Made by a program: the position numbers and the translations under genes
In this document: positions 18,305-64,000 of the stretch, in pieces
Position numbering within the stretch: position 1 is the stretch's first letter
Layout of the letters: each line of letters starts with the position of its first letter
Notes under the pieces: generated by a model
Database searches by the model: none
What the model was told of the DNA's origin: nothing
What the model saw: only the letters and a program-made list of their open reading frames with translations
From: Azolla caroliniana
Lineage: Eukaryota; Plantae; Polypodiophyta
Direction of reading: 5' to 3'
Assembly: GCA_043228905.1 (NCBI GenBank)
Contig: JBHGNT010000006.1
Span: 21,080,001 to 21,144,000 of the forward strand
DNA: 64,000 bases

Positions 18305-18320
18305 GTAAGCTAATTACGAT

Positions 18321-22245: not shown

Positions 22246-23591
22246 AGTTGAGGAAAACTCACCTATTAGACTGAGATTTCCGCAACATCCTGGTTTGCGA
22301 CTCCGACGACTTTGCCATAAACCATAACCATATAAAAACTATTATAAGAGAGTCCTAAAAGAAAAAAAATGATATATAGGTGTGTGTGGTATATATTTTT
22401 TAATTGATACATACCTATATGAGGAGGGAACTAGTTGTGTGTTAATGGTAGTATGGTAGTCTATTAATTCTAAGTTTTTCTGTTGCTATGAGGGCTTCGT
22501 CTACATCTAAATTATCATAGTGGTCCATCTGTTTGAATTTGGGTGCAAAACTCGCGATGGGGAGGAATATGATGACATTAAAGGCAATAACATGAGTGCA
22601 GGAAACCCCATGTTCCATTATGTGTGTGTCCGAATTCAAAAATTTCCCTCCCCATAATAAATTATATGTATCTTTTAGATTTTCCCACTAAATATTAGCT
22701 AAAACAACAGCTAATCAGCTATGGCCATGTTAGCTACATATTAGCTATATCAATGTTTCCATTCCCATGCTTTTACCGTATAATATTTATCATAGGGGTA
22801 AGGCTTCGTCTTGTGTACTATAAGGTCACAGGGTCAATTCTTATTTGTGGTTATATCGTGACACTATCCCCTTCTTTGAACAACAAGTATTACGAGTTGT
22901 CCAAGGTGGAGGACCTGGTTTGTCTGGAGTTGTCGATGAAATTCTTGAACAAGACCTCGAGCATTTTCAATATTCTCTATCGGTTCCCAAGTACAATTAG
23001 TTGGACTATATCCTAGCTAATCCACCAAATAATAGAGCTATTTGTAAAAAATCTTGGAAACATTTTGATGTTGCTCCAATGTCTAATTTGTACATTTGTT
23101 TGTTGATCGTACCTTGAGCATTGTGAAGAGAGTCAACGGGAATGCAAAGTTAGGGAGGAGGGAATGTTGAAGGGAGCGCAAAGTTGAGGGGAGCGCAAAA
23201 ATTAAGAATAAGGGGAAAGGTGGCATTTAGTTTACTGCGGAGCATAGGGAAATTGTATGGTTAGTGGGCTAACCACTAGGTGATTAAGGGGTGAAAAAAA
23301 AAAAAACAAGAAATGCATCACGTTCTTAGTATCTTCCTATGATAAATAGCTTGCCTCGCGAACTTATGTAAAGCTCAGCAATCACTTCAACGGAGGGTCT
23401 TAGTCCTAGGTAGCGGCGCTGAATAGATATGTTGCTTCCAAGTACATCAACGAACGTATCTATACATCGATGGAGTTATGCCTCCCATCAATGTCATTAG
23501 CCTTGAGTCCGGACCAATGAATACCCTTTTGATAGCGAATTGGGTGAAAGTGGTTTTCGAGCTACTAACTTGTTTAACGTTTATCTATTGG

Positions 23592-32200: not shown

Positions 32201-34121
32201 AAAATGGTGACCAACTGGATACAAGATATGAAGAAATCGTTTGGAACACAACTTGGAATGAACATGGGGGCTTATGCTTGCAACTTAACATTACAAAGGT
32301 TGCGCAAAACTGTAAAACCATTGTCTTCTCCCATTCGCTGCCATTCACACCATTACGTCAATACTTTAGCTCACATTTTCTTAGATATGATGGTTGACAT
32401 TCACACACAAATGAGAAGACTCATGGACTACATATTTTGTATTGAATAGGTTGGTAAGTTTAAGTATCATACTTACTAAATGCTCCACTTTCAACTCCAC
32501 ATTTTCAATATAGACCTTCCCTATGCACATTTTTGTCTTAGTCATGATTTTGCATTCCCAATTGCAACATTTGTTCATTAGCAAAACTTTCTGAGTCACA
32601 TACCAACTCCACACAGAATACATGAAAATGTTTCGATTTGGTGTCATAGGTTATATTTTACCTTTGAGGATGATAGTAAACTCCATTCATGTCTCTCCCC
32701 CTCTCCCATGACATCGTGGATATACATGATTAAGTGAAGGAAACGTCATCACATCATCTACAAGTGTGTTGTTGAGTGTTGCACAATCTACACTTGAAAA
32801 ACGAAAGTAAATTGAATGCATTTTAATTAAATCCATCTTCTAAATGCTCTTAAAACCAAATTGAAAGTGAAACGAGAATGCTACTAAAGCCCACATACAT
32901 GGGATGCTTGTTGAGCAACATCTGAATGTACCAACTCCACCTCATCAACCCCACATTGAGGATTTTTGAGATGGGCTTATCCTAGTCGTAACATATCAAA
33001 CTATTATCACAAGGTTATGGGTTCAAAATATTTAATACTTTCACATGTATTTGCTACATTATGCATCACTTCTCCTAGATTGCATGCCACATCAGTGTAT
33101 ACAATTGCTAATAAGTTCACAATCTCAACCTAATCTCAACTTTAGTCATACATATCTTTGGTGTATTGTATACCACTTCCATTATATACTACATGATTGC
33201 ATATAGATATATCACGCTAATAACCTAAGGGTCTTCATCATGTACCACTTTGTCTATACACCATGGAACATCGGTGCATCGACCTAATAGTCTCTAACTA
33301 TTTGACACACTCATCTCAATTATAGCTTTATATATTTCAATTCTCCTATACTAGGCTACTTATCAGTGTATCGAACTAGTGACCTACGGGTCTCCAAATA
33401 GTCAACTATGCATGGCTTGATTGCATCCCTTAATCTTCTTTCTCACACACTAAATAAATAAATAAATATATATATATATATAAATCATGAGAGTCTCACA
33501 ACCCAATCATGCCCATGTTATAAGTTTTCTCATACTTGGTCCCATACATAAGTCATGTTTGTAGCCTTTCCATGATGTGAAAACACCATCTTTCTCTCAT
33601 AGACACCAACACACACACATAACGAGACTCTCATGGCCCCACCGAAACACATGTTATCTTTCTCTAATATTCGGTTCTATAGTCCCCATTTGGCCTCTGA
33701 TGATGCTAGTAGATCTTAGATCTCTTTCTCTCTCTCTCTCTCTCTCTCTCAATCACTTTCACGTTCTCTTTCTTTGAGAGAGACCTCATAACCCCATTGA
33801 AACCCATGACATATTTTTTCTCCAAGTCGGTTTGTAGTCCATATATTGGCTCCCCTATGTGAGAAGGGTGGCACATATGTCAATACATAAGACCAACTAG
33901 CCTCTCTATGATTTTACTTATTTATTAACGCAACACATAATTCATAGAGGAGCTAACTCAATCTACTACTCACTCGTAAACTAATTAGGGACTAGCTAGT
34001 GTATGGTGTATATATGATGATTAGTTGACTAATTTATACTTCTTGTCCAAAGTCATGAAAGAATGTGAAAAGTACATTGCACAAGGAGACTCCAAGCCCA
34101 TGGGCCATAGAAAAGTGTTGT

Positions 34122-34154
<33 letters not shown>

Positions 34155-34642
34155 CAAACTATACACATATAGATATACACACCTCATCAACAACTATCAA
34201 AACCTTGGAGATTGGAAGCCTATTGAAAAGTGTACACACATACACTATACACATATAGATATAGATATAGATATATACACATTATCAACCACCACCACAA
34301 CCTTGGAACTATACAAACAAGTCTTCTTGTAGTTTCCCAAGGCTTCTTGGCACACTATGCACATATAACATTCATTGGTACTTCTACTTCTAATACTCAC
34401 AAATAATACTCACAAGTAAACCCTAACATGATCATTTTCTTCATGCTTCCACATTTTCTTAACCACTATACTTAAAACTACTTAAGATCATTTGTGTACT
34501 ATGTATACATATAATTCTCTGATTCCTTTTTGTTATTTTCTTAATAACTTGATGGGTTTTGTCCTATTAATCGCCTTGTAATAAATACTTTCCCATGGTT
34601 GACATAATTATGCCCTAATTGGTGCACAATTCGTTATATAAT

Positions 34643-35992
34643 ATGGATCTCTTGGATAACTATATGGCTATGGATTTTAATCCACTAAATGTCATGGGCA
34701 ATCTAACAAGCTATAGTTTCAATGCCAAGCATGTCTTAAATCCACAAGATCTGCATGATTTCATTACACCAGTGTCATGGAAGCAACAATCACCTATGCC
34801 GGCGCCCCATGATCATTCAGTATTGGGCAGCATTAATCATTATCCCGACAATATCATCGTTGGACATGATGCCGGAAACATTACTAATATCGTCATCGAT
34901 TCACATGCATTGGCCTCTCATCATCATCACAATCATCATCATCATCATCATCATGGTGTTATGCTATCATCACCCCATGACATGCATTATAATAGCAATA
35001 GTACTATGCATTCACCTAGTCCTGCCACTGATTATGATTTGAGCAGAGGAGGAATCACTAATGCTAATAATGTTGATAATGATGATGATGGTCGGGTGGA
35101 CATTCTTAATTTCGGGATGTCAAGTACAGGGAATTTCCGAGAGATTCTTCTCGACCCCGGAATGACCACGACGGCCATAGAACCCGATGACAATGCGAAT
35201 CATGATAACATTGGATTACCGCGCCAACATTATGATCCTCAAATTCAATTATATCTTGATGGCCATCATCATCAACAAAAATACAATAATGATGCTAATA
35301 ATGCATCAAGCAATGTAATAATAATCAATGGAGATATGAACATGGGTTCTCTAAGGACCACTCAATCTAATGCCAGTCATGGCCATGATCATCTCATTCA
35401 TAGCAACAGCAATAACAATAATGATATGAATGAAGATGATCATGGGAGCAATATAGAGGACATATTAAATTTAGTTAGTAGAGGAATTCACATAGATCCT
35501 ATAGATCACATGATGAGCAATGACACCAACATTGTGAATCATGATCCTACAAGTTTAAGCCTAGGTAATTACCCTAATGGCATGTCTAGCAATGGGATTA
35601 GTGCTAATTACCAGTCCTTAATCCACGGAGGAGCAGCGGCGATGACATTAGGGGATCATGTGGGCTACAATAGCATTGTCGGTACGAATCAAAAGGTAAG
35701 TGTGAAGAATAACAAGAGTCGGATTAGTGCCCATGATGGAGGCGATCAAGCGGGAGAGGGATCGATGGGATTTAGCGGGGCAAGAAGCTCCACAATTTGC
35801 TTCGGCCAACCGCCTCCTCCGCCTCCTTGTATCTATGACATGATGGGCGGCAATGATGACACGATCGGCCATCATAACTCGCCCAATGTTTTCCCGACCA
35901 CAACATCATCCGCGAGAAGACGCCGCTCTTCGTCATCCACTTCTTCATCTTCGTCGACCATCATCTCGACATCGGCAAAGTCCGACCAACTC
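34643..35992 (+). CDS. RSL1: RSL exon 1 (low-complexity N-terminal region)
   Basis: 450 open codons. Donor CTC|GTAAGG at 35992/3; alternative in-phase donor AAG|GTAAGT at 35695/6. Confidence 0.75.
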
Positions 35993-38482
35993 GTAAGGCC
36001 CCCCCTTCCCTTTAGAGTAAAAAAAAACTACAATGAAATATACCGATTCGATACCTCGTCTCCGTATATATAACATTCTTAATCCTCAAACCTAATCATG
36101 CCTTAGATCTAGTAACCCACCCCTAGATCAAAAATTTTGCAAGTTCCCTTCCCAATTCTTTTTTGGTTGCAAATTGTGAAAGAAATAGGATCTGAAAGGT
36201 TTAGGAATGAAAGGATTAGGGTATGAAAGCATTGGGAATGAAATGATTAGGAGTGGAATGATTAGGAATTTGGAAGGATTAGGAGTGAAATGATTAGGAA
36301 TGAAATGATGAGGAATGAAAGGAAGGATTAGGAGTGAAATGATTAGGAATGAAAGGATTAGGAATGAAATGATGAGGAGTGAAAGGATTAGGAATGATTC
36401 GCGAATCTAATTTGGTGTATGTGAATGCCAGAGTTCGCCGAGTGCCGCATGTATCGACTACGCAACCGTCGCGTCACTATTGACGCCGTACTCGCGTCCG
36501 AAGAAGTCGTCGCGGCACCCACTAGGACCCGCTCTCAACACGAATCTAAAGCCTCGTGCACGCCAAGGTTGTGCAAGTGACCCCCAAAGCATGGCAGCAA
36601 GGGTATGTTTGTCTTCATTGGGATCTACTGTATTTTAAATGTTTGATTAGCCATTAGCAAGATGTGCCCAAACCATTCTTTGTGGAATAGATTATCTAGC
36701 TTGGCTTCACTAATACTCTCCTAGGACAAACTTAAAATCCAAATTCCATTAAGAGACTATGGGAATCCTCCCCTAGAAACACACATGCCTCAAATGATCA
36801 TCGGAATTGCTACTAGTCGAGTGCCTCTCATGATTGTGCATGGCTTCGCAATATTGCACATATAGTAATTTAATTCATTTGCGACGATGAACTAGCTTTC
36901 ATATCCATAACAAGTTACATAATCACAATTAGCACATGGACATTTATAGGAAACTTAACTATGACTAGAGCATAATCAAACATCAATTAATGTCCATGTT
37001 TTGTTTGCCAACTATATGGAAATTTGTTTCTCAAATGGTGTGGTGCTTTCGTGGAATCTATATTGCATGTGTGATGATGATCGCATTGGATATAATTACC
37101 ACTTCACACAACTCAATACACGTAGAAAATATAGATTTTACCATGCAAGGATTGATCAAATTAAAGAGTCTAGATTAGTTAGTGTCACCCCAAATTGTAT
37201 GGAATGTAACATACATTATTGTACAAACACAACTTGTGTCCATGCATGGTTGTATATTTTAGACATAGGAAATATAGCATACAATATTATAAGCCATGAT
37301 GTAGGATAAACCCTTGGCACGATTATAGTAAGGGGTCCTTAAGTATGTGGGTTAGTTTACACACAAATAGCTAGTCATTTGAAAGGATATATTGGGAGAT
37401 GGGTGGTGCACAAATTCTTATGAGTCAATATTGTGCTCCCTCACTAATTGCTTAAATTGGAAATGCAAGGTGCAAAGTAGAAGCATATAACATGAAAGCT
37501 TATTGTTTGTTTCATACCTATATATATATTATATCGTATTACTCGCCTTAAATTACCATTCTATAGGAGATGCATAAATTCCACATCATAATTATAGAGC
37601 TTTTAACATAAAATTGCAAGCATATTAACATGCACACACACACTTGATGTAAATTTAGCAACTCAATCAAGTCTCACACATCAATAGAATGCCATGTGAA
37701 TGATTTAAAAATGGTCACATCGTTGAATCATGCTAGTTATCCAAAACCTAAACCTTGCGTTTATTTCCAATGTGTAACTTCACCATTTTTTCCGGATTCA
37801 AACTTCTAATAGTTGGTTTTGTAGTTGTATAAGGGTATTAGATCTTTGGTATGTTATAAAACATGATTTCAAATTCACTTTCCTACATTTTGAAATAGAA
37901 ACGGACGAGCTCAAAATGTAAACTATTTGTGTCATCATTCTGTTTTGTATAAGAAAATCTGTACATGTTTTGTATATGCTTTCAAAATGTTTTATGTGTG
38001 TTATCAAAGACATTAAACATATACATTTTTACATTGTCTTGTCTAGCAACGACGTGAGCGTATAAACAAACGTCTTAAAGCTCTACAGGAACTTGTGCCC
38101 AATGGGTCAAAGGTTAGAAATTAACTTTTCAATGAAGCCAAATATGATGATGGTTGCATATTATCAACACTAATGAAATTTTGGTTGAATAGGTAGACTT
38201 GGTCACAATGCTTGAGAAAGCTATCAACTATGTCAAATTTCTACAACTTCAATTGCAGGTACAATCATTGCTATAGTTAATATTAGTCTATCATGATAAT
38301 GTCGAGCTGCAAATCAAAGAAGTTTGATTTTGTAGGTTCTTACTGATGATGAGTTTTGGAGTAATCCGCAAAACCTATTTCAATCCAACAATGATCAAGT
38401 TGTTAGTGAAGAGAAGCAACTACAACATGGGATTCAATCTTCATCTCCAAATTCAACCAATCTTGTACCTAAAGTAGCTTAG
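34643..38482 (+). CDS. RSL1: Class I RSL (RHD6/RSL1-like, bHLH VIIIc) transcription factor, ~599 aa; exons 34643-35992, 36432-36602, 38047-38112, 38193-38258, 38336-38482
   Basis: Manual splicing at GT-AG, all phase 0, gives ...GPALNTNLKPRARQGCASDPQSMAAR|QRRERINKRLKALQELVPNGSK|VDLVTMLEKAINYVKFLQLQLQ|VLTDDEFW..., i.e. the RSL bHLH plus the RSL C-terminal motif. The long His/Asn/Ser-rich N-terminus is ORF 34619-36073. Start codon and exon-1 donor are the least certain parts. Confidence 0.9.
36187..36399. repeat. 15-bp minisatellite (GGAATGAAAGGATTA)n in RSL intron 1
   Basis: About 13-14 degenerate purine-rich copies ending ~30 nt before the exon 2 acceptor. Confidence 0.9.
36432..36602 (+). 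CDS. RSL1: RSL exon 2 (pre-basic and basic region)
   Basis: Acceptor GCCAG|, encodes PALNTNLKPRARQGCASDPQSMAAR, donor AGG|GTATGT. Confidence 0.88.
38047..38112 (+). CDS. RSL1: RSL exon 3 (helix 1 and loop)
   Basis: TCTAG| QRRERINKRLKALQELVPNGSK |GTTAGA. Confidence 0.93.
38193..38258 (+). CDS. RSL1: RSL exon 4 (helix 2)
   Basis: AATAG| VDLVTMLEKAINYVKFLQLQLQ |GTACAA. Confidence 0.93.
38336..38482 (+). CDS. RSL1: RSL exon 5 (RSL motif and C-terminus)
   Basis: TGTAG| VLTDDEFWSNPQ...VPKVA TAG. Confidence 0.9.
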   Translation, partial: VLTDDEFWSNPQNLFQSNNDQVVSEEKQLQHGIQSSSPNSTNLVPKVA

Positions 38483-47900: not shown

Positions 47901-49344
47901 TGAATGAGGAAGCGAGAAGGAAGGACAAGGGTGTCCTGTCTCATTCCGATGCGAATGTGTCACAACATTCGGATAGAGGAAGGAACCGACAAAGGAGTCC
48001 ACCAAGGAGAGAAAAGTCCCATGCCAGATCGAAGTTCAAAGGTAAGCTAAAATGCTTTTATTGTGGAAAGCCTCAACATTTCCAGAAGGACTGCCGACAT
48101 CTTAAGAAGGACAAGAGTGTCGGTAATACTGTCGAACCCAGGAAGATTCCTGATGAAAAGAGCACTTCAGCCATTGCTACGAGCAATGAAGAACTCCTGT
48201 TCATTTGAGAACAGGCAAGTGCAAATATTGCAAGAGAAGAATGCACTTGAGTGATTGACTCCGGTGCATCTTTCCATATAACTCTGTCGAGAGAGTATTT
48301 CTCAACTTACATAGCCGATGATCATGGCTATGTAAAGATGGGTGATAATTGAGAGTGCAAGGTAGCCGGAGTTGGAAGTGTCTACTTGATGACGCCAACA
48401 GGGTGTTGGCTAGCTCTAAAGCATGTTCGAAACGTCCCCGATATCAGATTGAATCATGATATCGACTAGAAAGATGGACAATGAAGGCTAGAGTGGTTGC
48501 TTCCGAAACGACAAGTGGAAGTTCTGTTGTGGAAACCTCATAGTGGTCAGAGCACAGAAAGAAGGCACACTATACATGATGTATGCCCCCTTGTGCAAGT
48601 CAGAAGTGAATGTGGCAACCAACTCGAGTGGAGATTTATGGCATAAGAGGCTAGGCCACATGAGTGAGAAATGTCTGCATCTGTTAGCCGACCAAAAACT
48701 TCTGCTAGAAGTAAAGGGAGTGCACCTGGAGAAGTGCGTCGACTACTTCGTTGGAAAGTAGAACAGAGCAACATTCCACTCAAGACCACCAAGAAGAAGA
48801 GAAGTGCTATTGGAACTAGTACACACGGATGTCTGTTATGTGGATGCTCCGTCGCATCGAGGCGGACAATACTTTGTGACATTCATCGATGACTACAGTC
48901 GGAAGTTGTGGGCTTTCATACTAAAGTCTAAAGATCAAGTAATTTCTTTTTTCAAGGAGTTCCAAGCAAGAGCCGAACGGGAGTCAGGTCGGAAGTTGAC
49001 GGCTATTTGAGTCGACAATGGTGGCGAATATAAAGGGCAGTTTGAGGAATACTTCAAGGCCTACGGTGTATTCGAATCGAATACATTGTACCAAAGAACC
49101 CTGAGTTCAACGGGCTTGTAGAGAGGATGAATCGAACAATCATGGAGAGAGTAAGGAGCATCCTCTCTCATGCTAAACTGTCGAAATCGTATTGGGCTGA
49201 GGCGATGTACACCGAGGTTTACCTGAGCAACAGGTCCCCCTCAGTACCACTGAAAGGTGATGTCCCACAAAGGGTGTCGACAGGAAAAGATGTCTCCTAC
49301 TGACACCTACGGGTGTTCGGTGTCATGAAGACAACATTTTGGCT

Positions 49345-49407
49345 TATCAAGAATCGAACCCACGACTTCTTGGTCTATGTGTTGAAACCTTAACCATTGT
49401 AATAACA
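49345..49407 (-). other. tRNA-like A/B-box cassette in U3 of solo LTR H (antisense)
   Basis: Minus strand TATTACAATGGTTAAGG ... GTCGTGGGTTCGATTCT, 44 nt between box starts. Confidence 0.65.
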
Positions 49408-50001
49408 TATATGTTGTGTGATTATAATAATTATATTTTTAGTTATTACGAGATATTAGAATATTCTAGAACATTCTAGAATATTCTAGAACATCCTTTA
49501 ATATTTCATGATTATATTTCTTATCATAAAAATCTAAAATATTCTAGAACATTCTAGAATACTCCATAAGGATCTATAAATAAGTGTCCATACATTCATT
49601 TCAACTCATTTGGTTCAACACCAATCTTTAGCCCTTAGCCTACTCATTAATAGGATCAGTACTAAGACAGAGAAGGAATTAGTACTAAAAGATGAGGATT
49701 AGTACTAAGAGAGATGTAGAACTCTCGAGAGAAGGAAAGAGTGAGAGAGAGAGAGAGATAGAGAGAGAAAAAGGGTGAGAGAGAATGATGATATATATTA
49801 TGTGAAGAGAGTATACAATAGTAGCTAGGAGGCTTAAGACTGGCGTTGAACCGATTTGGTTCGAAATAATGCCTTGTGTCTCCTTTTATAGTGTTCTTAG
49901 GAGTACTCCTGAAGTTTCTAGAATGTTCTAGAGAAATCTGGAATATACATCAATTTTCTATAATAAAACTAAATGAAAATAATATTCTATGTATTACAAT
50001 G

Positions 50002-50065
50002 TATGGTCTAATGGTTAAGAGCTTGACCCATGTAGCATAAGGTCATGGGTTCGAGTCTTGCCATA
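50002..50065 (+). other. tRNA-like A/B-box cassette in U3 of the Gypsy I 3' LTR (antisense to element)
   Basis: TGGTCTAATGGTTAAGAG ... AGGTCATGGGTTCGAGTCT, 44-nt spacing; acceptor stem does not pair. Confidence 0.7.
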
Positions 50066-52654
50066 TCATGACATTTCTATCCCCCCTTTAAAACGACGAG
50101 TGTCACGAGTCGTTTTGGATTGAGCACCCGGTTTGTCTGGATATTGACGATGGAAGTCTTCAAGAAGAGCACGAGCATTGGTCACATTCTCTATCGGTTC
50201 CCAAGTACGCTCGCTGGGGTTATATCCTAGCCAATCGACTAGATAGTAGAGCTTGTTGCGAACAATCTTGGAATCATGGATGGTAGCAACCTCGTACTTA
50301 GGTCCATCTTCAAGCTCGATCAGGGGTGGAGGCTGCGTAATACGTCTTGGGATGGTGCTCTCTTGATAGGGTTCGAGGAGGGAACTATGAAACACCAGAT
50401 GTATCGGAAGTTGCGGAGGTAGATCGAGACGAAAAGCAACATCATTAATCTTTCCTATAATACGGAGAGGACCTAATCGCCGATAATCTAACTTCTCGCA
50501 TGGGCGAGTAGTCTTGATGTGTCGTCATAGTAGCCATACCCGATCTCCAATGTTAAAACCGGATGGAAGTCGATGACGATCCGCGTAAACCTTGTGTGTT
50601 TGTTGAGCTTGTTGGAGATGAGTAGATAAATCGGCTTGTATTTTGCGCAAGGATTTGTGGACAACTCTAGGGTTTCAAATACACACCACTGGGGGTGACA
50701 ACCCATATAAGCATAAAATGGCGTAACTTTAGTCGATGCGTGGATAGAGTTATTATAGGCAAATTCAGCGAAGTGGAGAATATATGCCCAGTCATCCTGA
50801 TTATAGCTTAGAAAGCACCGAAGATACTGCTCTAGAATTTGATTTGTTCGTTCTACTTGGCTATCGGTTTGTGGGTGGTAGCCGGAGGAGAGGTTACAAG
50901 TGACTTTGAGCATTTTAAAAAGGTGCTTCCAGAATTTCGATACGAACTGGGTTCCACGATCGCTGATGATACTATCGGGAAGGCCATGATGCTGACATAC
51001 TTCACGCATGACAATTTTCTTCACTGGAGATTTCCTTAGTACATGGCAAGAAATGAGCCATCTTCGTATATCGATCTACGACTGTTAGAATCGCATTGAA
51101 CCCCTTAGAGACTGGAAGATCTGTGATAAAGTCTAGAGCAATAGAGCAATGGATTTCCACAGCTTGCTCGGAATTGGTAATGGTTCTAATAAACCATATG
51201 GACGATGCCTTGGCATTTTCGCTCTGGAGCATGTATCACAAGTCCGAACAAAATCTTCGACAAATTGTCGCATACGGAGCCACCAAAATGATCGTTGTAC
51301 TAAATCTAATGTTTTAGTACTACCAAAATGCCCAGCTGTATATGTGTCATGATAGTTTTGGACTACTTGAAGCTGGCAAGAACCATTAGGAACATACAAG
51401 ATTTCATTAAAGAATAGTAATCCATCATGGTATTTGAATTGCCGATAGTCCGTACCTGGTGGTTGTGACTGTGAACAAGATGCTCGAGAGGGATCAATTT
51501 GTGCTAGAATGGCTTGGGCGAAAACATTGGTCTTCAAGTCCTCACGTATAGTATTGATAACGTGGGAATCCATGGGCATGCCAAAGATCTGTGTTGCTTG
51601 CAGTCGCGTCGGTCCCAAGATTACTTGCTTTTGGTTATCAAAAGCTGGCTCGCTGGGATGCGGTGATAGGTACAAACGCCGTGATAATGCATCTACCTTC
51701 CCTTGGTGCTTCCTCGGACGATATGTAATTTTGAAGTCAAAACGAGTGAGGAAGTGGGCAAGGTTTTTGTGGTCATTGAATACAGTGACTTGATGAGAGG
51801 ATCCCTCTAGAAAATGCCTCCATTGCATAAAAGAGTCCACTATTGCCAATAGCTCCTTATCATGAATTTCATAGTTGATTTTGGCGGCGTCAAACTTGCG
51901 TGAGTGAAAAGCCACAGGATGTAGCTTCTCATCATTACCCCATTGTGATAGAATGCTCCCTAATGCGAAATCCGATGCGTCTGCTTCAATAATGAATGGT
52001 TTTTCTAGATTAACATGAGCTAGAATTGGAGTAGATGTAAATGCCTTTTTAAGAATCTCGAAAGACATGTCCGCTTCTTCAGACCAAACGAACGATTGTC
52101 CCTTCCAAGTAAGCTGTGTGAGAGGCAAAGCGAGCTTTGAGTAATCCTGTATGAACTTCCGGTAAAAATTGGCAAAGCCTAAAAAGCATTGCACATCTCG
52201 CACCGAACGCGGAGTCTGCCACTCTACCACATTTTTGACCTTAGCTGGGTCCATGGAGATGCCTTCCAAGGAAATGACATAGCCTAGAAATTTCACCTGG
52301 TTACACCCAAAACTACATTTTTCCAGCTTTGCATAAAGACCATGTTCTCGAAGTTGTTTTAGTACTAACAATACATGAGAATCATGCTCTTCTTGGGTCT
52401 TCGAATCATTTGCCATGTGCTGGAAGACTACTGGCGCATTAGTGAGGCCGAACGGCATGACCGTATACTCGAAGTGCCCATATCTGGGGCGAAACACGGT
52501 CTTCCATTCATCTCATGGTCAGATCCGTACGAGGTTATAGGCTCCCCGTAAGTCGATCTTCGTGAAGAACCTTGCACCATTGATATGTTCTAAAAGACTT
52601 GAGATAAGGGGAAGTGCATACCTATTTCTGATTGTAACCTTATTCAAGCCATGG

Positions 52655-53983
52655 TGTCGTGAAGATTTTCGGCAATGGTGTGAAAATCACATAAACCTAC
52701 AAAAAGGTGGAGTTCTTGAAGAGTTTTCAAATGCACTTTACTATATAAGAAATAGACATCTAAGTGTCAACTTATGTGGGTATGAAGTTTTGCAAAAGAA
52801 AAAGAGAAAAATAAAACTGTGAAATATCTCACATAGATAGGAAAGTTTAGGCTCTAGCTATATAAGTAGATTGAGATCCATCATATTTCATCTGTGTTAA
52901 GAGCACATAAAAAAATAGTTGGACTTAAGCCACTTTTGTCTAGATGGACATATGTGGCTAAGTCGTTGGATGTGGTTAAGTGCCCGAACCGGCTGGTGAA
53001 GAAACTCAAACCGGTCGATGATAGAATCGAAAACCGGATGGAGCTGACAATCGGTGACCATATGCATCTGGCAACCGGTGATCGGATGGATCCGACAATC
53101 GGCAATGGAACCGATGAACGGTGATCCGGTGACGGAACCTGCGATCTACCGGTGTTGGTAAACCCGGTTGCTGGCATCCGACGACGGAGCCGGTGGCAAA
53201 TCCGGTGAGCCGGAGACGGTAAGCTAGCGGCAACCGGCGGCGGAGCCAATGAGCAGACAACATTGGGCGACCGGCCGGTGACCGGCAAGTGACTTGGGAT
53301 GCAGACTGGGCCGGACCAAACGGATGCAAATCGGACGGATCGGTCGGGTCGGTTGATCGCGGTGCATGGTGTGTTAAAGATGTTTGGTCCAAAAGCCTAA
53401 TAGTATTTTGTGCATAAAAGAAAAAGATGTAAGCAAGATGAACTTAACACCTCCAAGATAGGAAGCAATAGGCTTACCATTAAGCCAAACCATTTCTTTA
53501 GAGATTATATTTTTATCATTATAACTTTACATGTAAATTCTCATACATGAGAGCTAAAATGAGTGACGTGGTTATCATGCACCACATCTAATACATGAGT
53601 GCCAAATCGCAAACATGCATTTTATGCATGTCTTGTACCCTCAAATGCATGAGGGCATCTATAAAAGAGGAGGGGAAAAAGATGAAAGGGGTAATATAAA
53701 ATTCTTATCAAGAGCTTTGTACTTTATATCAAAATTAATATTAAGAAGAAAATTCGTTATCCTTTTGATGATATACCTTGTTCTTCAAATCTAAAGCCAA
53801 GAGTTCAATCTTAATCTCTCTCTCAATCTAAAATCAAGCGTTCTATCTTATCTCAATCTGTCTCTCTTTCAATCTATCTTAAATCCTTTCTCGCTAAAGC
53901 TAGGGCCAACTTCGAATCCTTCCTGTCCAGAACCCCGTTGGTTCCGCCTCACGATCCGCGTGTAGTGACAGATCTTCATGACA
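52655..53983 (+). mobile_element. 1329-bp solo LTR K inserted in the Gypsy I RT, 4-bp TSD ATGG/ACGG
   Basis: Termini TGTCGTGAAGAT...ATCTTCATGACA (12-bp inverted repeat, one mismatch). The host rejoins as VDYRGLNK. TATAAAAG at ~53660. GC-rich ACCGG repeat block 52985-53370. Confidence 0.85.
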
Positions 53984-56411
53984 ACGGTAATCTACAATGA
54001 GACGAAGTGATCCATCCTTTTTCTTGACGAAGAAAATGGGTGCGCCGGCTGGAGATTTCGAATGCCGAATGAAACCATTTTCCAAATTCTCCTCTATATA
54101 GGCTCACAAGACTTCTAGCCCGATTGGTGACAAATTGTAGATCGGTCCCCATGGTGGTTCTTTCCCCGGTTGTAAATCGATGGGGCAATCATATGATCGA
54201 TGGTGAGGAAGCATATTGGCTTGTACTTTATCGAACACATCGGCATAATAATGATACTTCTTTGGAAGTTGAACGATGGACTCCTCTTTAATGGTGTCTG
54301 AGGGCTTTACTGATATTGTGAAAAGAAACATTTCTTCCTTGCGTCCTTCTTCCCGCAACTGATGTAGCGAAATGGTTGCAATCTTATCAGTAGACCCTCG
54401 AGCTTTTCGATACCGGATTTCTCTTGTTCTCCAATCTATGTCTGGGTTATGTAATTCCAACCATGGTAATCCTAAAACAATGGGGTGTTTTGGGATGCTA
54501 ATTATATTAAATGATACTACACATGCTAGATTATCTAGAACAATATTAACAGGCTCTGACTCTTCTATGATATTTCCGGAAGCAATGGGACGACCATCAA
54601 TGACTACTATAGAGGCTGGACATAGGAGTTTTCATGAAGCAAAGTTCCTATCCATGAAGCAAGAATTAGCTCCAGAATCTAGAAGTGCTAAGACATGTAC
54701 TGGAGGGGTACTTTTAGTACTAGCTGTTACTTGGGCTACAAACAGATTGCTAACTTGCTTAGAGGGAATGGAACCACTAATGGGCTGCACAGATCTAGGG
54801 CTGTCCAACCAAACAACTCCTATTTTGGCTTGACTTAGTCGTTTAACTCTTCTTCTAACTAACTAAGGACATTAAATTTGTTCGCTAGGTTTCGGCTATT
54901 AGTACTATTAGGACTATCAGATATCCCTACTGAAATAGACTTGGGTTTAGTACAATCAGAACTAGCAACTATTTGGTTTACTTGCCTTCTTGGTCTATGG
55001 GGACAGTTTACCGCAATATGCCTTGGTCCACCACAATAAAGACATAGTCGGTTTGCTCGGCGTCGTTGCTTTTCTTCTTCCGATAGCGGTCCACGACGAT
55101 GTGTAGTGTCAATTTCCATCGGAGTTGGAGTACTTACTGGAGGCACATTATATGACTCCCTCGGAAAAGGTTTCGTTACCACTGAGGCGTAGGGAGGCTC
55201 AGATCTTGCCCTTGGCATATGGAACTGACGTTTCGAACACCATTCGAAGAGGCGATTGTCGCATCTCACTGCGCGACTAATTGCTTCTATTAATGACTTT
55301 GGTTCTTCGGGAAAGGTCAAGAGTAAATCTTTGACATCGTTACATAGACCATAACGAAATTGCTCCATTAACTCTTGATCATCGCAGGGGATATCGGAGG
55401 CGAGTAGACGAAAATTTGCATCGTATGCGGAGGCTGGACGATCGCCTTAACGTAGTCATCGGATTTTGTTGATTGCTGTCCTTATGCTGTCAGTATCTCC
55501 AAAATAGGCTTTAAACTCACTTATAAACTCTTCAAAATTGTTTAGTAATGGAGATTCTTTTTCTAACAGCGGAGCGAACCATACCAACGTTGAGCCACTT
55601 AACAACATGCCTACTAAACCCACTTGTGATGCATCGGTGGGATATCAGGAAGGATGCATTTGAATAACTAGTTGTACCTGATTAAGGAACCCTCTAAACT
55701 GTGATCGTGTTCCATCGAATTTCATGGGAAGGCCGATCTTGGGTTCTTTATGAATCCCTTGTGTTTCAGGTCCTTGTTGTTGCATCGCTACGATGGTTGC
55801 TTCGAGTTGTTGCATGCGTAACGCAAGTTCCCCATGTTGTTGCATTTGATGCTTTTCTAAGGAGATTTGTTGAAGATCCCCCAACAACCGTTGATTTTCT
55901 TGTTCCAAAGCAAGGAACTTCTCTTTCAAGCATTGCAACTCCGAGAAAACAGATTGATATTCTTGAGCGCTAACAATGGCCATGGGATGAGAGGAAAGAG
56001 GAATAAGAGATTAGTATGAAGGGAGGGAGATAGAAGAGGGAGAAATTGGTTCAAATTGTCAGGATTAGTACTAAGACAAAGAAGGAATTAGTACTAAAAC
56101 ATGAGGATTAGTACTGAGAGAGATGTAGAACTCTTGAGAGAAGGAAAGAGTGAGCGAGAGAGAGAGATAGAGAGAGAGAAAGGGTGAGAGAGAATGATGA
56201 TATATATTATGTGAAGAGAGTATACAATAGTAGCTAGGAGGCTTAAGACTGGCGTTGAACCGATTTGGTTCGAAATAATGCCTTGTGCCTCCTTTTATAG
56301 TGTTCTCAGGAGTACTCTTGAAGTTTCTAGAATGTTCCAGAGAAATCTAGAATTTACATCAATTTTCTATAATAAAACATAAATGAAAATAATATTCTAC
56401 GCATTACAATG

Positions 56412-56475
56412 TATGGTCTAATGGCCAAGAGCTTGACCCATGTAGCATAAGGTCATGGGTTCGAGTCTTGCCATA
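56412..56475 (+). other. tRNA-like A/B-box cassette in U3 of the Gypsy I 5' LTR
   Basis: Copy of the 50002-50065 cassette: TGGTCTAATGGCCAAGAG ... GGTTCGAGTCT. Confidence 0.7.
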
Positions 56476-58076
56476 TCGTGACACTCATTGTAATCTTGTT
56501 TCATCATAATATAATCTCATTTCTATTTCAACTCTTATCTCTCTCTCTCACTCTCTCTCATGCACACACACACACACACCCTCTCTCTTTCACTCTCGCT
56601 CTCACTCTATCTCCTACCCATGAGTCTCGACATTCAGATGCTTAGTGTATATGCATGTTGCAAATGATCAGAGGTCGAAGCTCGACAGTAAGTCGAAAGT
56701 GTGCATATTTATGGGATACTTGGAGGATGAGTTCGGCTACAGGCTATGGGACTTAGCCGATAAGAAGGCGGTGAGGAGTCGGGATGTAGTTTTCTTGGAA
56801 GACCAAACAATTGAGGACTGGAAGAAACAGAAGTCAGAATCGACTCCCTAGTCGCCCTCGACTACCACCTTTAGACTAGCTGAACCAACTCAGTCAGCTA
56901 ATCGGAGATAGCTCGATAGAAGAGCTGAATCGGAGTCCGTCGACTTAGAGCAACCGACCTATGAGTCAGAGTCGACGGACCTATTGAAGTCGATTGAAGA
57001 ATACGAATTGGAGTTAGTGGACATCCGACAACCGATCGACATGAATGAACCCAGGCCGAGAGAAGATTTGAGAGAGAGATCTGAGCCGGAGCCAACGACG
57101 AATGGAAGGAGATATCCTCTCAGAGAGAGAAGAGCACCGACAACATATGCTAGTCAATAATCCTCTCGACTGATGAAGGTGAACCAAAGTGCTATGACGA
57201 AGCCATTGCCGACAAGCACAGAGAAAAATGGTTGAGTGCAATGCAAGACGAGATGGACTCCTTGCATGAAAACTACACCTACGACCTAGTAGAATTATTG
57301 AAAAGTAAGAGAGCACTCAAGAACAAATGGGTCTATAAGGTGATGATTAGAGAAGTCGACAACGCGCCTAGGTATAAAGCCCACATACTGGCGAAGGGGT
57401 TCCAATAGAAAAAGGGTGTTGACTTCAACGAGATATTCACACCAGTCGTGAAGATGACATCCATCCGAATTGTTCTGAGCATAGCTGCCAGCATGGACCT
57501 AGAGATCGAACAGTTGGATGTCAAGATGACATTCTTGCATGGGGAGCTGGATGAAGAGATCTACATGCAGTAGCCTGAAGGCTTTGAGGAGAAAGGGAAA
57601 GAGAACTTGGTGTGTCAACTGAAGAAAAGCTTGTATGGTCTGAAGCAAGCTCCATGCCAATGGTACAAGAAGTTTGAATCCTTTATGACGGAAAATCGGT
57701 TCCAGAAAACACAAGCTGATCACTGTGTGTTCGTCAAAAGGTACGAAGAGGGTGATTTCTTGATTCTTTTGACGAACACATGACATGTTGATAGTCAGTC
57801 AAGACACAAGGAAGATCGGGAGCTTGAAGAAAGCCCTAGGCAAATCGTTTTCCATGAAAGATCTTGGACCGGCTAAACAGATCTTGGGGATGCACATAAT
57901 TTGAGATAGAACTAAGAAAGTGATGTGATTGTCACAACAGAAGTATGTGACAAAGATCCTAGAGAGGTTCAACATGTCGGAAGCAAAGCCGGTCGGCTTT
58001 GTGTTGCCGACCAACTGCAAGTTAAATGCTAAGCAACGCTCAAGAGGGGAGAAAGAAAAGGCTGAAATGAAGAAAG

Positions 58077-58774
58077 TGCTGGGAATATGTCCCTCTAGTG
58101 GGAGGAAGAACCGATTGATCGGAAAGCCGACAATCGATGACAAGGAAGATCCGACTGTTCGGAAAGCCGACAGTCGAAGAGTCGAAAACAGTGAGTCGAT
58201 TGTTTGAAGATTCGACTATTATTATTATAGTAGTAATAATAATGATGATGTGTGGAAACAAGTCCCTCCAGATGGGAAAGAGAGAGGAGCCGAGTTGATG
58301 AGTGACTCGTCGGCCTCAACCGAAACCAGAAACGTGTATATAGCCAACTCGGGAGACTATAATCGTGGAAGTCTAAGTGTGCGCCCCATGACAGCTACGT
58401 ATGTAAATAGCCGGAAAGTTGTGTAAGTATATATACAACTAGGGAAAACTTTATGTGTGTGCAGAGGTTGTTGTGTGTAGAATGAGTGTTAGAGAGAAGA
58501 AGTGTGAGCCACGCCATAGCTGTGTTTGTAACAGTAGATGCGAAGAGCCCTGTGTGGCTGATACACTTGACAGAGTGTTGTAACCTTCTCGCTGGTGTAT
58601 ATCCTCTATTTGTATAGTGAAGTTCTGTTCCCATGGTTTTCCCGTTTTAGGGTTTCCATGTAAATCTCTGTGTACATCTGTTTATCTTGTCTTTCTGGTG
58701 CATTTCTGTAATTCGTATTTCAGCGCGTAGTTCGTTTATTGTGATCTATTCCGCATCAATTTCTCTTCAAATTG
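58077..58774 (+). mobile_element. LTR M (related to the Copia E LTR) with PBS stub, inserted in Copia E RT
   Basis: Starts TGCTGGGAATATGTCCCTCTAGTGGGAGG, like the E LTR. Ends CTTCA followed by AATTGGTA. The host rejoins as EMKKVPYAS. Confidence 0.85.
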
Positions 58775-60417
58775 GTACCATATGCCTCAGCCGTCGGCAG
58801 TGTAATGTACGCTATGTTCTGCACAAGACCAAACGTAGCATTTGCTGTGGGAAGAGCAAGCTGATATACGAGTAATCCAAGACGAGAACACTGGGCAACA
58901 GTGAAGTGGATACTTAGGTACTTAAAAGGCACCTCGGGGGTATGCCTAAGGTATGGCTTCGAAAATCCATGCTCAAAGGGTTTACCGATTAGGACATGTC
59001 AGGGGATGCAAACACAAGCCAATCCACGTCAGGGTACGTGATGACCTATGCAGGGAGGGCAATGTCGTGGCAGTCACGACTGCAGAGGTCCGTGGCCTTG
59101 TCGACCACAGAAGCAGAATATATGGCAACGGTAGAGGCCGGTAAGGACTTGATTTGGATGAAGAGTTTCCTCAATGAACTCAGGATGAAGCAAGAAGAAT
59201 TCTTGCTACATTGTGATAATCAGAGTGCCATACATCTTACAAAGAACGCTGCATACCACTCTCGAACCAAGCATATACAAAGGAGGTATCACTAGTTGCG
59301 AGAGAAGGTAGATGAAGGAGATGTTTCTCGCGTGAAGATCCATACCGACGACAATGGATCCAACTTGCTCATGAAGAACCTACCAATGGACAGACTTAGA
59401 GTCTGTCGATAGATGACAGGATTGACCAACTCCCACCCACTGGAGTGAAGGGGGAGTATGTTGGGAATATGTCCCTCCAATGGGAGAAACCGACTGTTTG
59501 GGTCAAGAAGTGTCGATAGTCGAAGACAAGGAGGAGCCAACTGTTCGGACCGAGTGCCGATGGTTGAAGAGTCGACTGTGAGAGTCAACTAGGTGAGCCG
59601 ACAAGAAGGAGATTCAGGTCGAAGACATGACCGACTAGTCAGGCCGATTGGATGGTCGATGACCATGCCAACTAGTTGGACCGATCAGACAGTCGACACT
59701 AGAGTCGGCTGATGGCTACTTATTATTATATATAATAATAGTATTGATGTGTAGTAGGGGGCTACATTTGTAAATAGCCCATATAATGTATGGGTATAAA
59801 TACATCTAGGGCAAACAAGTAGTGTGCTCTGAGTTGAGAAGTGAGCATGTGAGAGAGCGATAGCAAAGTTCAGTGAACTTGCGAAGAACCCTAAGCGGCT
59901 TATCCTCTATGTGTGTCAAAGAAGATTGTAACCGTTTTTCTGTACTCTATTGTGTATAGTGGAATCTCTATTCTTGTGGTTTTCCCCATTTAGGGTTTCC
60001 ACGTAAAACTGTGTATTCGTGTATTTGTTGTGTTTCTGTCTTTCCGCAATATGGTATATTCCACAATCGGTTTTTCTCACGATTAGAAGGGATCTAATCC
60101 CATCAGTAGACAACTGGAGCCGATTTGGGATCGGCTTGTTGAAACGTACACACCAACCAACCATGAACTGGTTGTGCACTTCTAAAGTTTCGACTTCCAT
60201 GAAATTGCTCCATTGTTGAATTTGACGTTGTATCCGGTTGTTGACTTTCGATTGTCCACACAACCGGCAAAGTTCGAGTTAGTGTAGCCGACTATGCCTG
60301 AGTTATTTTCGTGTCGAAGAGGATGCCAAGGTCTTGTGTGCCCACCAGATATCTGAATATATGATTGATTGTGTTGCAAAGTGATCGGCCGGGGTTGTAC
60401 ATGAATCAGCTGGTGAT

Positions 60418-62446
60418 TGTCACATTCTAGACTCAAACCTCAAACCTATAACACATCTAGTACATAGTGTTGTGTTAAACCATCTGGAAACTCTTGTGAA
60501 CTTGAAAACGGTTTAATATTGTATAGTTAGTATATTCTAGAAATATTCTAGTCGTTAGTATATTCTAGAAATATTCTATGGTATATTCTAAACGGGTATA
60601 TTCTAGAGATATCTCTCGAGTATATTCTAGAGATATTCAATCTCAGAACTTGTATAAATACTTGTAACCTCCATGGTCCCTTTCAAGGGATTCATTGCAA
60701 GTCATTGATACATCAATCTAGTCTTCTTGTTGCATTCCATCTTGTTTCCTTCTTCATCTGTGTCTTCATGCTCTTATGTCGTTCCCAACTTCTTAAGTTC
60801 CACGCTCGTAGCCCCATCATCCATGCTTTGTCCAAGTTTGCTTTTGTTGTGTTCGTGATAGTTTCAATCCCTTCACAGTGGAAGCATCTCCCGTCTTTGT
60901 GATTGTCCTTGTTTCTAGAGTTACCATCGTCACCGTCCTTGCTTCCAGAGTTATCATCATCAACATCCTTAGTTTTAGAGACATCTTCGTCATAGTCATC
61001 GTTGCTTCTAGAGACACCCTCATCACCATAGTCACGATCGTTGTTTTTAGAGACAATTCCTCCTCCTCATCATCTTTGTTGCCTTGTCTTCGACATCATC
61101 ATTTTCAACACCTCTTGTTCTCTTCATCAAACACTACTTCACCCAACCTTCATCGTCATGAACACTACTTTGCATGGTCTTTCATTATCATCATTGTTCC
61201 GCCCTCTTCATTGGCATCGTCATCATCTATAGGTATCATTTTGCATCATGATTTTAGTGAGGCTTGATTTTAATTGCTCACCTTCATAGTTCCGGTGGGG
61301 GTTACAACTGCTCACTTTCCTGGTGGGGATTGAATCATTGCTTGCTTGCACTCCATTTTTATTTTGGTCCACATTTCACACCACTTTCCTTTGGTGAGGA
61401 TCGATTTTGATTGCTCACCTTTTAGTTCAACTGGGGGTCACAACTAACTTTTCAGGTGGGGGTCACAATTAACTTTTCAGGTGGGGGTCACAATTAACTT
61501 TCAGGTGGGGGTCACAATTAACTCTTCTGGCGGGGGTCACAACTAACTTTCTTGGTGGAGATCACGTCAGTTTCTTGCTAGTGCTACCATTTGTGCCGTG
61601 TTTTGGGTCATCCTTGGCTATTTACCATCTCATGATAGAAGAAGTCGAGTCAACCGCTTCACTTGCACTCATTTGCTCGTTGCTATTCCAATTCCCGGTG
61701 AGGACCGCACATGGTTGCTCACGCCCGTTCATGTTCCAGTTCTCGGTGAGGGCTACACATGGTCGCTCACACCAATTAATGTTCAAGTTCTTGATGAGGG
61801 CCGCACATAGTCGCTCATGCCCATTGGTGTTCGTGTTCCTTTTTCCACACCTTCAATACCTCGTCCTATGGAAGGGTTACCCCTTGTCTGATGCCACGTG
61901 GGAACCAACGAAGAATTTACAAAATATCCCGGAGGTACTCCAAGATTTTCATCACCGATATCCCCACAAACAAATGGCCGGTTTGTGAGGGCAGCATAAG
62001 AGGGGAGATAATGTCACATTATAGACTCCAACCTCTGATTTGTAGCACATCTAGTACATAGTGTTGTGTTAGACCATATGGAAACTCTTTTGAACATGAA
62101 TATGGTTTAATATTGTATAGTTTAGCATATATTCTAGTCGTTAGGATATTCTAGAAATATTTTGTGGTATATTCTGAGAAATATCTTGAGTATATTCTAG
62201 AGATATTTCTTGAGTATAATCTAGAGATATTCAATCTCAGAACTTATATAAATACTTGTAACCTACGTTGTTCCTTTCAAGGATTCAGTGCTAGTCATTG
62301 ATGAATCAATCTAGTATTCTTGTTCCATTGCAGCTTGTCTCCTTCTTCATCTCATGCTCTTATGTCGTTCCCAACTTCTTAAGTTCCACACTAGTATCCC
62401 CATCATTCATGCTCTATTTGAGTCCGTGGTTGGTGTGTCCATGACA
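60418..62446 (+). mobile_element. Non-autonomous chromovirus-derived LTR element N; LTRs 60418-60860 and 62012-62446
   Basis: Diverged LTR pair starting TGTCACATT, PPT AAGAGGGGAGATAA. The internal region consists of tandem repeats plus a chromodomain remnant LQYLVLWKGYPLSDATWEP (~61850-61985). TSD not conserved (GTGAT vs ACGAC). Confidence 0.85.
61430..61565. repeat. 24-bp tandem repeat (GGTGGGGGTCACAATTAACTTTTC)n inside element N
   Basis: About 5.5 direct copies without spacers. Further ~27-bp (60900-61050) and 48-bp (61690-61835) tandem units lie nearby. Confidence 0.88.
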
Positions 62447-62555
62447 ACGACTCCTGACATGGGCTATGTTAGGTTGTGTCACAACCATTGTGTACATCAA
62501 GGAGCCGACTACCAGTGCATATGGTACCAACTTCATATCTTCCCCCTCTGCACCG

Positions 62556-63451
62556 GTTTCTAGATCTCTTTCGGTTCTCGCCGGGTCCTCTTTATTCATC
62601 ACCAGATCCCATCTGAAGAGACCGATTTCCCAACAATCTCCCCCTTCACTCCGGTATGGGATGTCTTGTAAGTCCGATCTGTTTCCGGCATGCGTCCAAC
62701 TTATCGGGTGTCAGCATCTTGGTCACCATATCCGACCCATTCTCCTCTGTGTGGATCTTCGTCAGCACGAACTCTCAATCTTCAACTCACTCCCAGATCC
62801 AGTGGTACCTGTGCTAGATGTGCTTCGTTTTGGAATGGTATGCCGTGTTCTTTGCAAGGTGGATGGCACTTTGATTGTCGCAGTAGAGCCGATATTCCTC
62901 TTGCCGGATCCCTAGCTCTCCGATGAAGTCCTTCATCCATAATATTTCCTTGCCGGCTTTCACGGCTGCCATGTACTCCACCTCCGTGGTTGACAACGCA
63001 ACCGTCTTCTGCAACCTTGACTGCCACGAAACGGCTCCCCTTGCATAGATCATGACATATCCGGAAGTTGACTGGCTGGTGTCCACATCCGCCGACATAT
63101 CCGAATCGGTAAATCCTTCCATGAGGGGTTTACTGGAGCCGAATCGGAGGCACATACTTGAAGTGCCCTTCAAGTACCGGAGTATCCATTTTACCACATT
63201 CCAGTGGTCTTTTCCGGGGTTGGTCGTGAACCGACTCAACACTCCGACTGGGTATCCAATATCCGGTCGGGTACACACCATTGCGTACATCAAGCTCTCG
63301 ACCGTAGAGGCATATGGAATCTTCATCATATCCGCCTTCTCTGCCTTTGTCTTCGGGCTTTGCTTACCTGATAATCTGCAGTTTGCTGGGAGTGTCGATC
63401 CGACCGGTTTTTCTTTTGACATGTTAAATTGCTGAAGCACCTTTGTCACGT
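62556..63451 (-). mobile_element. Copia G 3' fragment (RT C-terminus, RNase H, PPT, truncated 3' LTR), related to Copia E
   Basis: ORF 62814-63449 carries TRPDI, FTDSD, ALSTTEVEY, YCDNQSA, TKHI. PPT GGAGTGAAGGGGGAGA precedes TGTTGGGAA at 62635. Confidence 0.88.
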
Positions 63452-64000
63452 TGTCGTGCCTTTCAGCGTCAGATCGTTACGTGAGTCGGGTGGGAACCGC
63501 TGGGGTTTTGGACTAGGAGAAAGAAGAATATGAGATAAGGCTCCTTATGAATGGATTGCAAGAAAGAGATATATTTGAAGGAAGATATGAAACTCGTGAA
63601 TCCCACGAGTATAGTGTATTAATTGATACTTAGAATGTAAGAGAGAAATAGATGGCAAAATCATGAATCCTTATCTTATTCAAACCTTATAAAAAAATCA
63701 ACCACCTATACATCTTTCTCTCTTCCTTATATAGTGTTGGAAGAGTCTAAGTTTATCACATGCAAGCATCATGCTTTTCCTAACTTTAGTTTTCATGCAC
63801 ACTGCATGTGCATGATTAGCTTTCTATCCCATCTTTTCTTTTAACTCGAGTGTGTATGCATGAATAACTTTTTGTACCATGCATATCTAGAATATTTACA
63901 TGGGATAAAGTTTAGTATAACTTTAAAATTCATAATATGCTAGTATAGTGGTAAGGCTTAAAAATCATTAACATGGAGGTACAAGGTTCGAATCCTGCCT
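63452..64000 (-). mobile_element. LTR J (minus orientation) interrupting Copia G; runs off the window
   Basis: Starts TGTCGTG at the break in the host ORF. Reverse TATA at ~63727-63734. U5 motif shared with K and L. Confidence 0.7.
63941..64000 (+). other. tRNA-like A/B-box cassette in U3 of LTR J (antisense)
   Basis: TAGTATAGTGGTAAG (63941) ... GGTTCGAATCC (63985), a perfect B box with 44-nt spacing. Confidence 0.7.

Follow-up and report, generated by a model that had tools for sequence, protein, structure and literature searches.

A window of 64,000 nucleotides from the genome of Azolla caroliniana (contig JBHGNT010000006.1, positions 21,080,001 to 21,144,000) contains a decayed Tcn1-like chromovirus (element I) whose two long terminal repeats (LTRs) carry, in U3 and antisense to the TATA box, a cassette consisting of the A box and the B box of a tRNA-type promoter for RNA polymerase III (Pol III). 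The same arrangement is present in a solo LTR (H) and in an LTR of a high-copy family (J). Our in silico analysis of these elements and their relatives demonstrates that the lineage keeps the tRNA boxes and has lost the cloverleaf. The pattern of conservation makes it probable that the cassette is a selected binding site for the transcription factor TFIIIC, and we infer that selection acts on the DNA and not on an RNA. With a confidence that stays a little short of even, we suggest that the cassette may act as a chromatin barrier that shields the element's own promoter; this function is the weakest step in our line of inference. The original prediction, made from the window, that the boxes rather than the tRNA are retained, and this in a protein-coding chromovirus, is borne out by the high identity of the boxes and by stem pairing at the level of shuffled sequences.

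We define the cassette as a tRNA-type A box plus a B box, with the spacing counted from tRNA position 8 to position 52. The four pairs that had been predicted, in the two LTRs of element I, in J and in H, were all found at their positions (Table 1), each with a spacing of 44 nt. Block-wise, dinucleotide-preserving shuffles of the window (n=200) never reached these counts: the window contains 4 matches to the D-loop plus T-loop pattern compared to a mean of 0.12 in shuffled DNA, and 3 to the textbook A+B pattern compared to 0.025. H fails the textbook pattern, as its A box is only half preserved, with a T at position 10. A weight matrix trained on 20 LTRs from metagenomes and on none from the window recovered seven sites in the window, the four pairs among them, and none in 10 shuffled windows. 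It returned no cassette in the Copia elements or the other LTR pairs of the window. In a further correction to the prediction, the 5' LTR of element I reads TGGCCAAG.

The cassettes of the window are all antisense to the TATA box of their LTR, as predicted. They had also been said to point outward through the LTR 5' end; this is correct for element I and H, where the B box lies 15 nt (LTR end at 50073) and 29 nt from the terminus, respectively, but uncertain for J, in whose relative N, an LTR nested in element I, the cassette is situated approximately 780 nt inside the LTR. The A box of N looks intact (53487-53477, minus strand) and its B box, judged by eye, is broken near 53440, which places the site below the matrix threshold. 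This decayed cassette had been overlooked, as had a fifth copy (K), located at the 5' end of a 3' LTR that belongs to a further chromovirus remnant on the minus strand, a site at 33.0 kb and one in an LTR family termed L. Worn cassette-like sequences are seen at 32978-33030 (plus strand; the site at 33.0 kb), at 60430-60500 and 62015-62075 (minus strand) and at 680-745 (minus strand); one of them lies outside recognised LTRs and the rest belong to LTR families L and M, both having relatives with intact boxes (for M, L057, L068 and L071; L numbers denote the metagenome loci described below). ARAGORN found no tRNA in the window, and runs with lowered thresholds gave scattered junk calls only; Rfam gave no tRNA match in the window, nor in the cassettes of element I or J taken alone.

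To follow the cassette through the lineage, the SH3-chromodomain end of element I, aligned with 11 homologues, was used as query, and loci were picked regardless of whether they carry a cassette. The best 80 of 152 matches yielded 76 metagenome loci, in 61 of which a polypurine tract (PPT) and an LTR start were found. When the first 130 nt of 54 LTR starts of at least 260 nt (window LTRs included) were scanned with strict patterns, an antisense B box was present in 40 and an A..GG+B pair in 34; the sense strand of the same LTR starts contained 3 and 0, and 500 shuffles gave at most 4 and at most 2, respectively. Among 59 LTR-start segments anchored on the B box, A14 and G18G19 stand at exactly 43-44 nt in 44, compared to 0 of 59 on the sense strand and a mean of 0.17 (maximum 2) in 300 shuffles; the segments omit 19 of the 76 loci, of which 8 are distant and 11 have LTRs that are short or missing. 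In a quick tree (149 columns, no reference elements) the cassette is spread across a clade of 62 rows and two outer clades. The matrix detected no cassette in the 8 distant loci (L051, L055, L060, L063, L064, L069, L072, L073). In the collection viral_contigs, a protein scan returned one irrelevant locus and an alignment scan none, and the combined PPT and B-box pattern had no match in viral_contigs or genome_contigs.

The cassettes had been assigned to three different LTR families, an independence that does not extend to H and I. These two can be aligned across U3, and H clusters with the 3' LTRs of the chromoviruses L032-L035, on which its membership among chromodomain elements rests; H and I are therefore two families of one lineage. 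Contigs from four sequencing runs, representing three organisms, mapped in large numbers onto H and I (3612-6460 per run) and J (1671-2691), and cover the cassettes of all three as part of very deep repeats, with thin coverage of the J cassette in the third organism. The variants listed within the cassettes lie at 50005, 50016, 50024, 50035 and 63948, and none of those listed affects the B-box core. Insertion of a short interspersed nuclear element (SINE) into these particular copies was considered and is ruled out: the cassette is fixed in high-copy families in three organisms, and there is no tail between the B box and the LTR end.

In a set of 18 diverged representatives, made up of 16 high-coverage loci, J and K, pairwise identity amounts to 0.80 in the A core, 0.82 at positions 44-48 and 0.90 in the B core, compared to 0.35 in the spacer, 0.37 in the upstream DNA, 0.37 at the free A-box positions 11-13 and 0.39 at positions 49-51; anchoring on the boxes inflates their identity, and the control covers presence and spacing only. 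The fixed spacing and the GTC of the cassette are unaffected by this bias. In pairs drawn from 30 loci, the spacer falls from 0.94 to 0.28 and the upstream DNA from 0.86 to 0.30 as identity of the integrase end declines from >95% to 50-60%, while the boxes only fall from 0.99 to 0.82. The boxes are thus conserved far above the flanking LTR DNA, and the conserved bases fit GTCnnnnGTTCRAnYC, the pattern of tRNA-internal B boxes bound by TFIIIC (PMC3159450). The A box stands at 43-44 nt in 23 of 30 representatives, a set that retains about four rows which by eye appear mis-anchored (L018, L027, L043, L067).

The cloverleaf shows no such preservation. Pairing in the acceptor stem (0.35 compared to 0.34 in column shuffles, in agreement with the predicted unpaired state), the anticodon stem (0.42 compared to 0.41) and the T stem (0.63 compared to 0.66) equals that of shuffled columns, and the D stem is marginal (0.57 compared to 0.50, P 0.044). 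The matrix also recovers the two real tRNA genes of locus L028, and these two eukaryotic genes match the cassette at universal positions alone. As its origin we infer one ancient acquisition, either of a tRNA gene or of a SINE head.

Losses of the cassette in individual copies (L044, L066, N, M) and its absence from distant relatives are what one would expect if it were a functionless passenger, derived from an old SINE or tRNA insertion or from repeated fresh captures of different tRNAs. The boxes have, however, outlasted a saturated spacer, and their position and strand are fixed. Fresh captures would keep their stems; since the stems are gone, repeated capture is disfavoured. The CpG of the B box is informative as well. 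In contigs of at least 10-fold coverage it reads CG in 21 cases, CA in 10 and TG in none, and in low-coverage single copies CG in 3, CA in 13 and TG in 2; in the former, the change permitted by the B-box consensus is common and the forbidden one absent. To judge from these comparisons, the passenger explanation is largely refuted, and we regard it as the least probable of those considered.

The U3 regions follow a common order of terminus, B box, A box, AT-rich stretch, GAAnnTTC array and TATA box, with 81% AT in the DNA upstream of the cassette. GAAnnTTC triplets occur between cassette and TATA box in 14 of 21 LTRs, and also in I and H (expected ≤0.01); H has further arrays at 49459-49491 and 49542-49559. 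We take this array to be a heat-shock-element pattern, and LTRs that possess it may be heat-inducible. A primer-binding site (PBS) of 11-12 nt that is perfectly complementary to the LTR about 33 nt after the TATA box, indicative of self-priming as published for Tcn1 (PMC6317226), is found in L005, L013, L015, L029 and L071; of the 18 loci in which gag was detected, most of them without a 5' LTR, these five are the clear cases, counting true LTR-end matches only. Because the elements self-prime, the cassette cannot be a leftover of a primer, and its origin by primer read-through was rejected. GGTTCAA at 49612, 49852 and 56261 was likewise rejected as a B box, since it is the self-primer; in sense direction this self-primer, as present in families I and H (49852-49842, minus; 49612-49622, plus), resembles a B box, probably by chance.

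An antisense pair cannot produce genomic RNA, and its maintenance in coding elements calls for another task. Since the boxes outlast their drifted surroundings, they likely recruit the TFIIIC of the host. We propose that TFIIIC, with or without Pol III, would bind the cassette, which lies at the outer border of U3, and would keep heterochromatin away from the stress-type enhancer and the TATA promoter of the element; in the 5' LTR the cassette would stand between the flanking host chromatin and this promoter. Reverse transcription would restore the cassette in both LTRs at each jump, so that every new copy would bring its own boundary. In fission yeast, tRNA genes (tDNAs) and B boxes are TFIIIC-dependent barriers that work independently of orientation (PMC2040200).

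One subclade carries, in the linker between protease and reverse transcriptase (RT), an in-frame insertion of about 25 residues that contains a second antisense A/B pair with a spacing of 42 (Table 1). The sample comprises four distinct sequences (L012/14/16/17, a second element in L012, L013, L015) and is small and related; in all four, T-CGA-AC of the B box and T-ACC, which corresponds to the GG of the A box, are kept and the surrounding residues vary. An antisense B box was present in 0 of the 24 other linkers compared. The clade may have captured a tRNA promoter at least twice, always backwards, and TFIIIC/Pol III may serve it as a portable anti-silencing boundary, possibly together with antisense transcription of the 3' end; we put the chances of this wider proposal slightly below even.

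Several observations weigh against a selected TFIIIC site with barrier function. A barrier needs no fixed orientation, and both cassettes, in U3 and in the linker, are nevertheless antisense; for a boundary, the linker midway through pol is not an evident place. Where the repeat is methylated, the CpG inside the B box may prevent binding. Position 10 of the A box is T in 12 of the 30 representatives, H included, and the cassette is lost or broken in several copies (in family L in addition to those named above). When LTRs are grouped by single linkage, the strict B box is found in 11 of 19 clusters and the A+B pair in 7 of 19. The eight distant relatives without it imply that the cassette is dispensable for chromoviruses in general. 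The loci are kin to one another and derive mostly from one set of assemblies, and the anchoring bias described above has to be added to this list.

The main rival to a barrier is an active Pol III promoter, from which antisense RNA initiated in the 3' LTR would cover the start of U3, the PPT and the integrase/chromodomain end and would either tune the RNA of the element or supply small-RNA pathways. We consider this unlikely, at odds of perhaps one in a handful, but it accounts for several features. Both boxes and their spacing are kept, whereas a lone B box can suffice as barrier (PMC2040200), the orientation is always antisense, in the linker cassette too, and the upstream DNA is AT-rich. 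T4 occurs inside the cassette in just 1 of 18 representatives; A4 runs, however, are equally rare (3 of 18). The final 399 nt of pol contain fewer terminator-like runs than expected (18 compared to 26.1 +/- 3.8, P 0.025), a deficit that relatives lacking the cassette do not share (25 compared to 22.8), but this is one of 10 tests performed on related sequences. A T4 terminator lies inside the LTR in 4 of 21 cases and is missing within approximately 400 nt in 10 of 21; with no terminator or length in common, no defined small RNA is to be expected. A rod-shaped fold beats shuffles in 10 of 33 cassettes compared to 1 of 33 flanking controls; it is mostly confined to one clade, and the sense strand scores alike (11 of 33). 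In the clade of element I (50014-50062 and 56424-56472) this rod arises from complementarity between the spacer and the B-box side, with z of -2.7 to -4.5 (-3.4 for element I itself), and L029 has a two-sided change in it. The hairpin is not lineage-wide, and a register scan revealed no clear shared helix.

Pairing of the U3 region of the genomic RNA with the T and D loops of a host tRNA, for dimerisation, packaging or strand transfer, would be a further way to conserve the boxes, one that the original prediction had left aside. In Ty3, the T arm and the D arm of the initiator tRNA pair with U3, and the place and polarity of the cassette equal those of the 3' part of the bipartite PBS of this element (PMC5371799); moreover, the conserved positions are those common to most tRNAs. 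The elements studied here self-prime and need no tRNA (see also PMC6317226), conservation is scattered, with positions 11-13, 49-51 and 59-60 free, and no contiguous helix results. The wobble-permitted changes of G53 to A and of T55 to C occur in 0 of 30 representatives and positions 52 and 57 vary, an argument that is partly circular. Position 58 is invariant. In tRNAs this position is methylated and pairs badly. Taken together, we judge such pairing to be improbable.

Somewhat less probable still is a role in placement, in which the TFIIIC site would tether copies to Pol III foci or would make the LTRs landing pads for elements that target Pol III. TRE5-A integrates at isolated B boxes (PMC3159450), and in L028 a truncated chromovirus adjoins two tRNA genes, which is a single case. 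The insertions in the window miss Pol III starts: element I sits about 240 nt upstream of the A box of H, and the A box of a further tRNA-like unit is where the element at 14991-18310 inserted. In L028 (552-1640) the tRNA genes, for Asn and Thr, lie directly beside the 5'-truncated chromovirus, whose cassette is intact.

The window is rich in repeats, with remnants of Copia, Gypsy and long interspersed nuclear elements in a Pfam domain search. Element I had been described as a structurally complete chromovirus. It does possess both LTRs (95.5% identity), a PBS, a PPT, a 5-bp target-site duplication (TSD; CTCAT at 49643-49647 and 56484-56488) and all domains, with Pfam matches to RT, RNase H, the integrase zinc finger, SH3 and, downstream of integrase, the chromodomain (PF00385, E 1.8e-13); yet numerous stops and frameshifts and the nested LTR N identify it as a dead copy. 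H is flanked by the TSD TTCGG/TTCAG. The U3 of N is related to that of J, and its middle part is long, GC-rich and built of short repeats. As 15 contigs continue alike past 63999, J extends beyond the window; the comparison of J with coding elements gave no more than an 80-nt match to a U5 end in L057, without a PBS, and J could not be tied to coding DNA.

Table 1. Coordinates of elements and cassettes in the window and of linker cassettes in metagenome loci
Feature	Position	Strand	Basis
Element I, Tcn1-like chromovirus, decayed copy	49648..56483	-	Pfam domains, LTR pair, stops/frameshifts
PPT of element I, adjoins cassette in Pol III direction	50074..50090	-	sequence
Self-priming PBS of element I; 11/12 nt complementary to LTR 33 nt past TATA start	56044..56056	-	sequence
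GAAnnTTC array between cassette and TATA, 3' LTR of element I	49910..49928	-	pattern
LTR N, 1329 bp, nested in RT (YRG codons) of element I	52655..53983	+	sequence, U3 alignment
Solo LTR H, split by element I, inside a Copia	49321-49647 + 56489-56632	+	sequence; LTR clustering
LTR J, 3' part, high-copy family, within another Copia	63452..64000	-	sequence, contig mapping
Cassette, 3' LTR of element I: A box 50004-50014, GTC 50042-50044, B box 50048-50058	50004..50058	+	pattern, matrix
Cassette, 5' LTR of element I, boxes at 56414/56458	56414..56468	+	pattern, matrix
Cassette in H: half A box 49404-49394, B box 49360-49350	49350..49404	-	pattern, matrix
Cassette in J, boxes at 63941/63985	63941..63995	+	pattern, matrix
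K, the fifth cassette; 43-nt spacing and a worn B box	22788..22863 (copy at 22788-22841)	+	matrix
Linker cassettes	L012:960-1030 + 6285-6350, L013:2905-2975, L015:2605-2675	antisense	matrix, sequence

Elsewhere in the window, a repeat that follows a (GA)n tract at 14840-14990 contains two partial tRNA-like units placed face to face (a B box at 14857, plus strand, and an A/B-like unit at 14985-14940, minus strand), an arrangement that occurs in tandem in L018 (290-540); the element inserted in the A box of the latter unit is young, with LTRs that are 99.7% alike. A long low-complexity open reading frame at 34619-38480 is followed near 38 kb by short exons that by eye appear bHLH-like and that may represent an RSL-type bHLH domain.

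Chromodomains are expected to steer elements of this type to silent chromatin. Should the cassette be a barrier, it would explain how chromodomain elements settled there can be expressed, these genomes would contain thousands of mobile TFIIIC sites, and TFIIIC insulation would for the first time become open to study in plants; to our knowledge, such insulation has not been tested in any plant. If our reading is true, a Pol II element would be running on Pol III machinery.

Among known systems, the fission yeast barriers resemble the cassette in having A and B boxes near a Pol II promoter at the edge of heterochromatin, but they are host loci whose function has been tested (PMC2040200), whereas the cassette is mobile and a putative barrier. 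Ty3 shares a tRNA-complementary sequence in the U3 of a Ty3/gypsy element; it is tRNA-primed and pairs with one tRNA (PMC5371799), while the self-priming elements described here preserve scattered box bases only. Chromodomain, self-priming PBS, PPT and a host outside the seed plants are features of the Tcn1 clade (PMC6317226; PMC2864245), which among plants has been considered confined to mosses and club-mosses (PMC6317226). The excerpts of these two papers make no mention of Pol III boxes, and the term "polymerase III" occurs 0 times in that of PMC2864245. In a literature search whose reach excluded most subscription papers and the Repbase reports, no description of coding LTR elements with antisense A/B boxes came to light, and the Pol III promoters described in LTRs were those of non-coding TRIMs (miniature retrotransposons with terminal repeats) only. 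It has been noted that "not a few" LTRs in Repbase contain part of a tRNA, of which only those of TRIMs were analysed (PMC10886601); LTRs such as ours may therefore already be on record there, unanalysed.

The closest likeness is to Helenus (TRIMp3), whose LTRs contain tRNA-derived sequence that is conserved at the A and B boxes, mostly without a working tRNA, and which is known from a lycophyte (Helenus-1_SMo; PMC10886601). Element I agrees with it in having tRNA-derived A and B boxes in both LTRs. Helenus, however, is non-coding, 311-1263 bp in length and tRNA-primed, and its boxes, in PBS sense in Helenus-1_SMo, are proposed to be the promoter of the genomic RNA (PMC10886601); the elements analysed here are of 5-6 kb, encode gag-pol with a chromodomain, self-prime, possess a TATA box and carry their cassettes in the opposite orientation. 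The autonomous partners of TRIMs have been argued to rely necessarily on Pol II (PMC10886601). Cassandra TRIMs also keep an internal Pol III promoter in plant LTRs, which is of the 5S type, has been shown to drive the genomic RNA and replaces the Pol II promoter of these non-autonomous elements (PMC10886601; bioRxiv 10.1101/2023.07.14.548913); the lineage described here, by contrast, adds an antisense tRNA-type pair beside its Pol II promoter.

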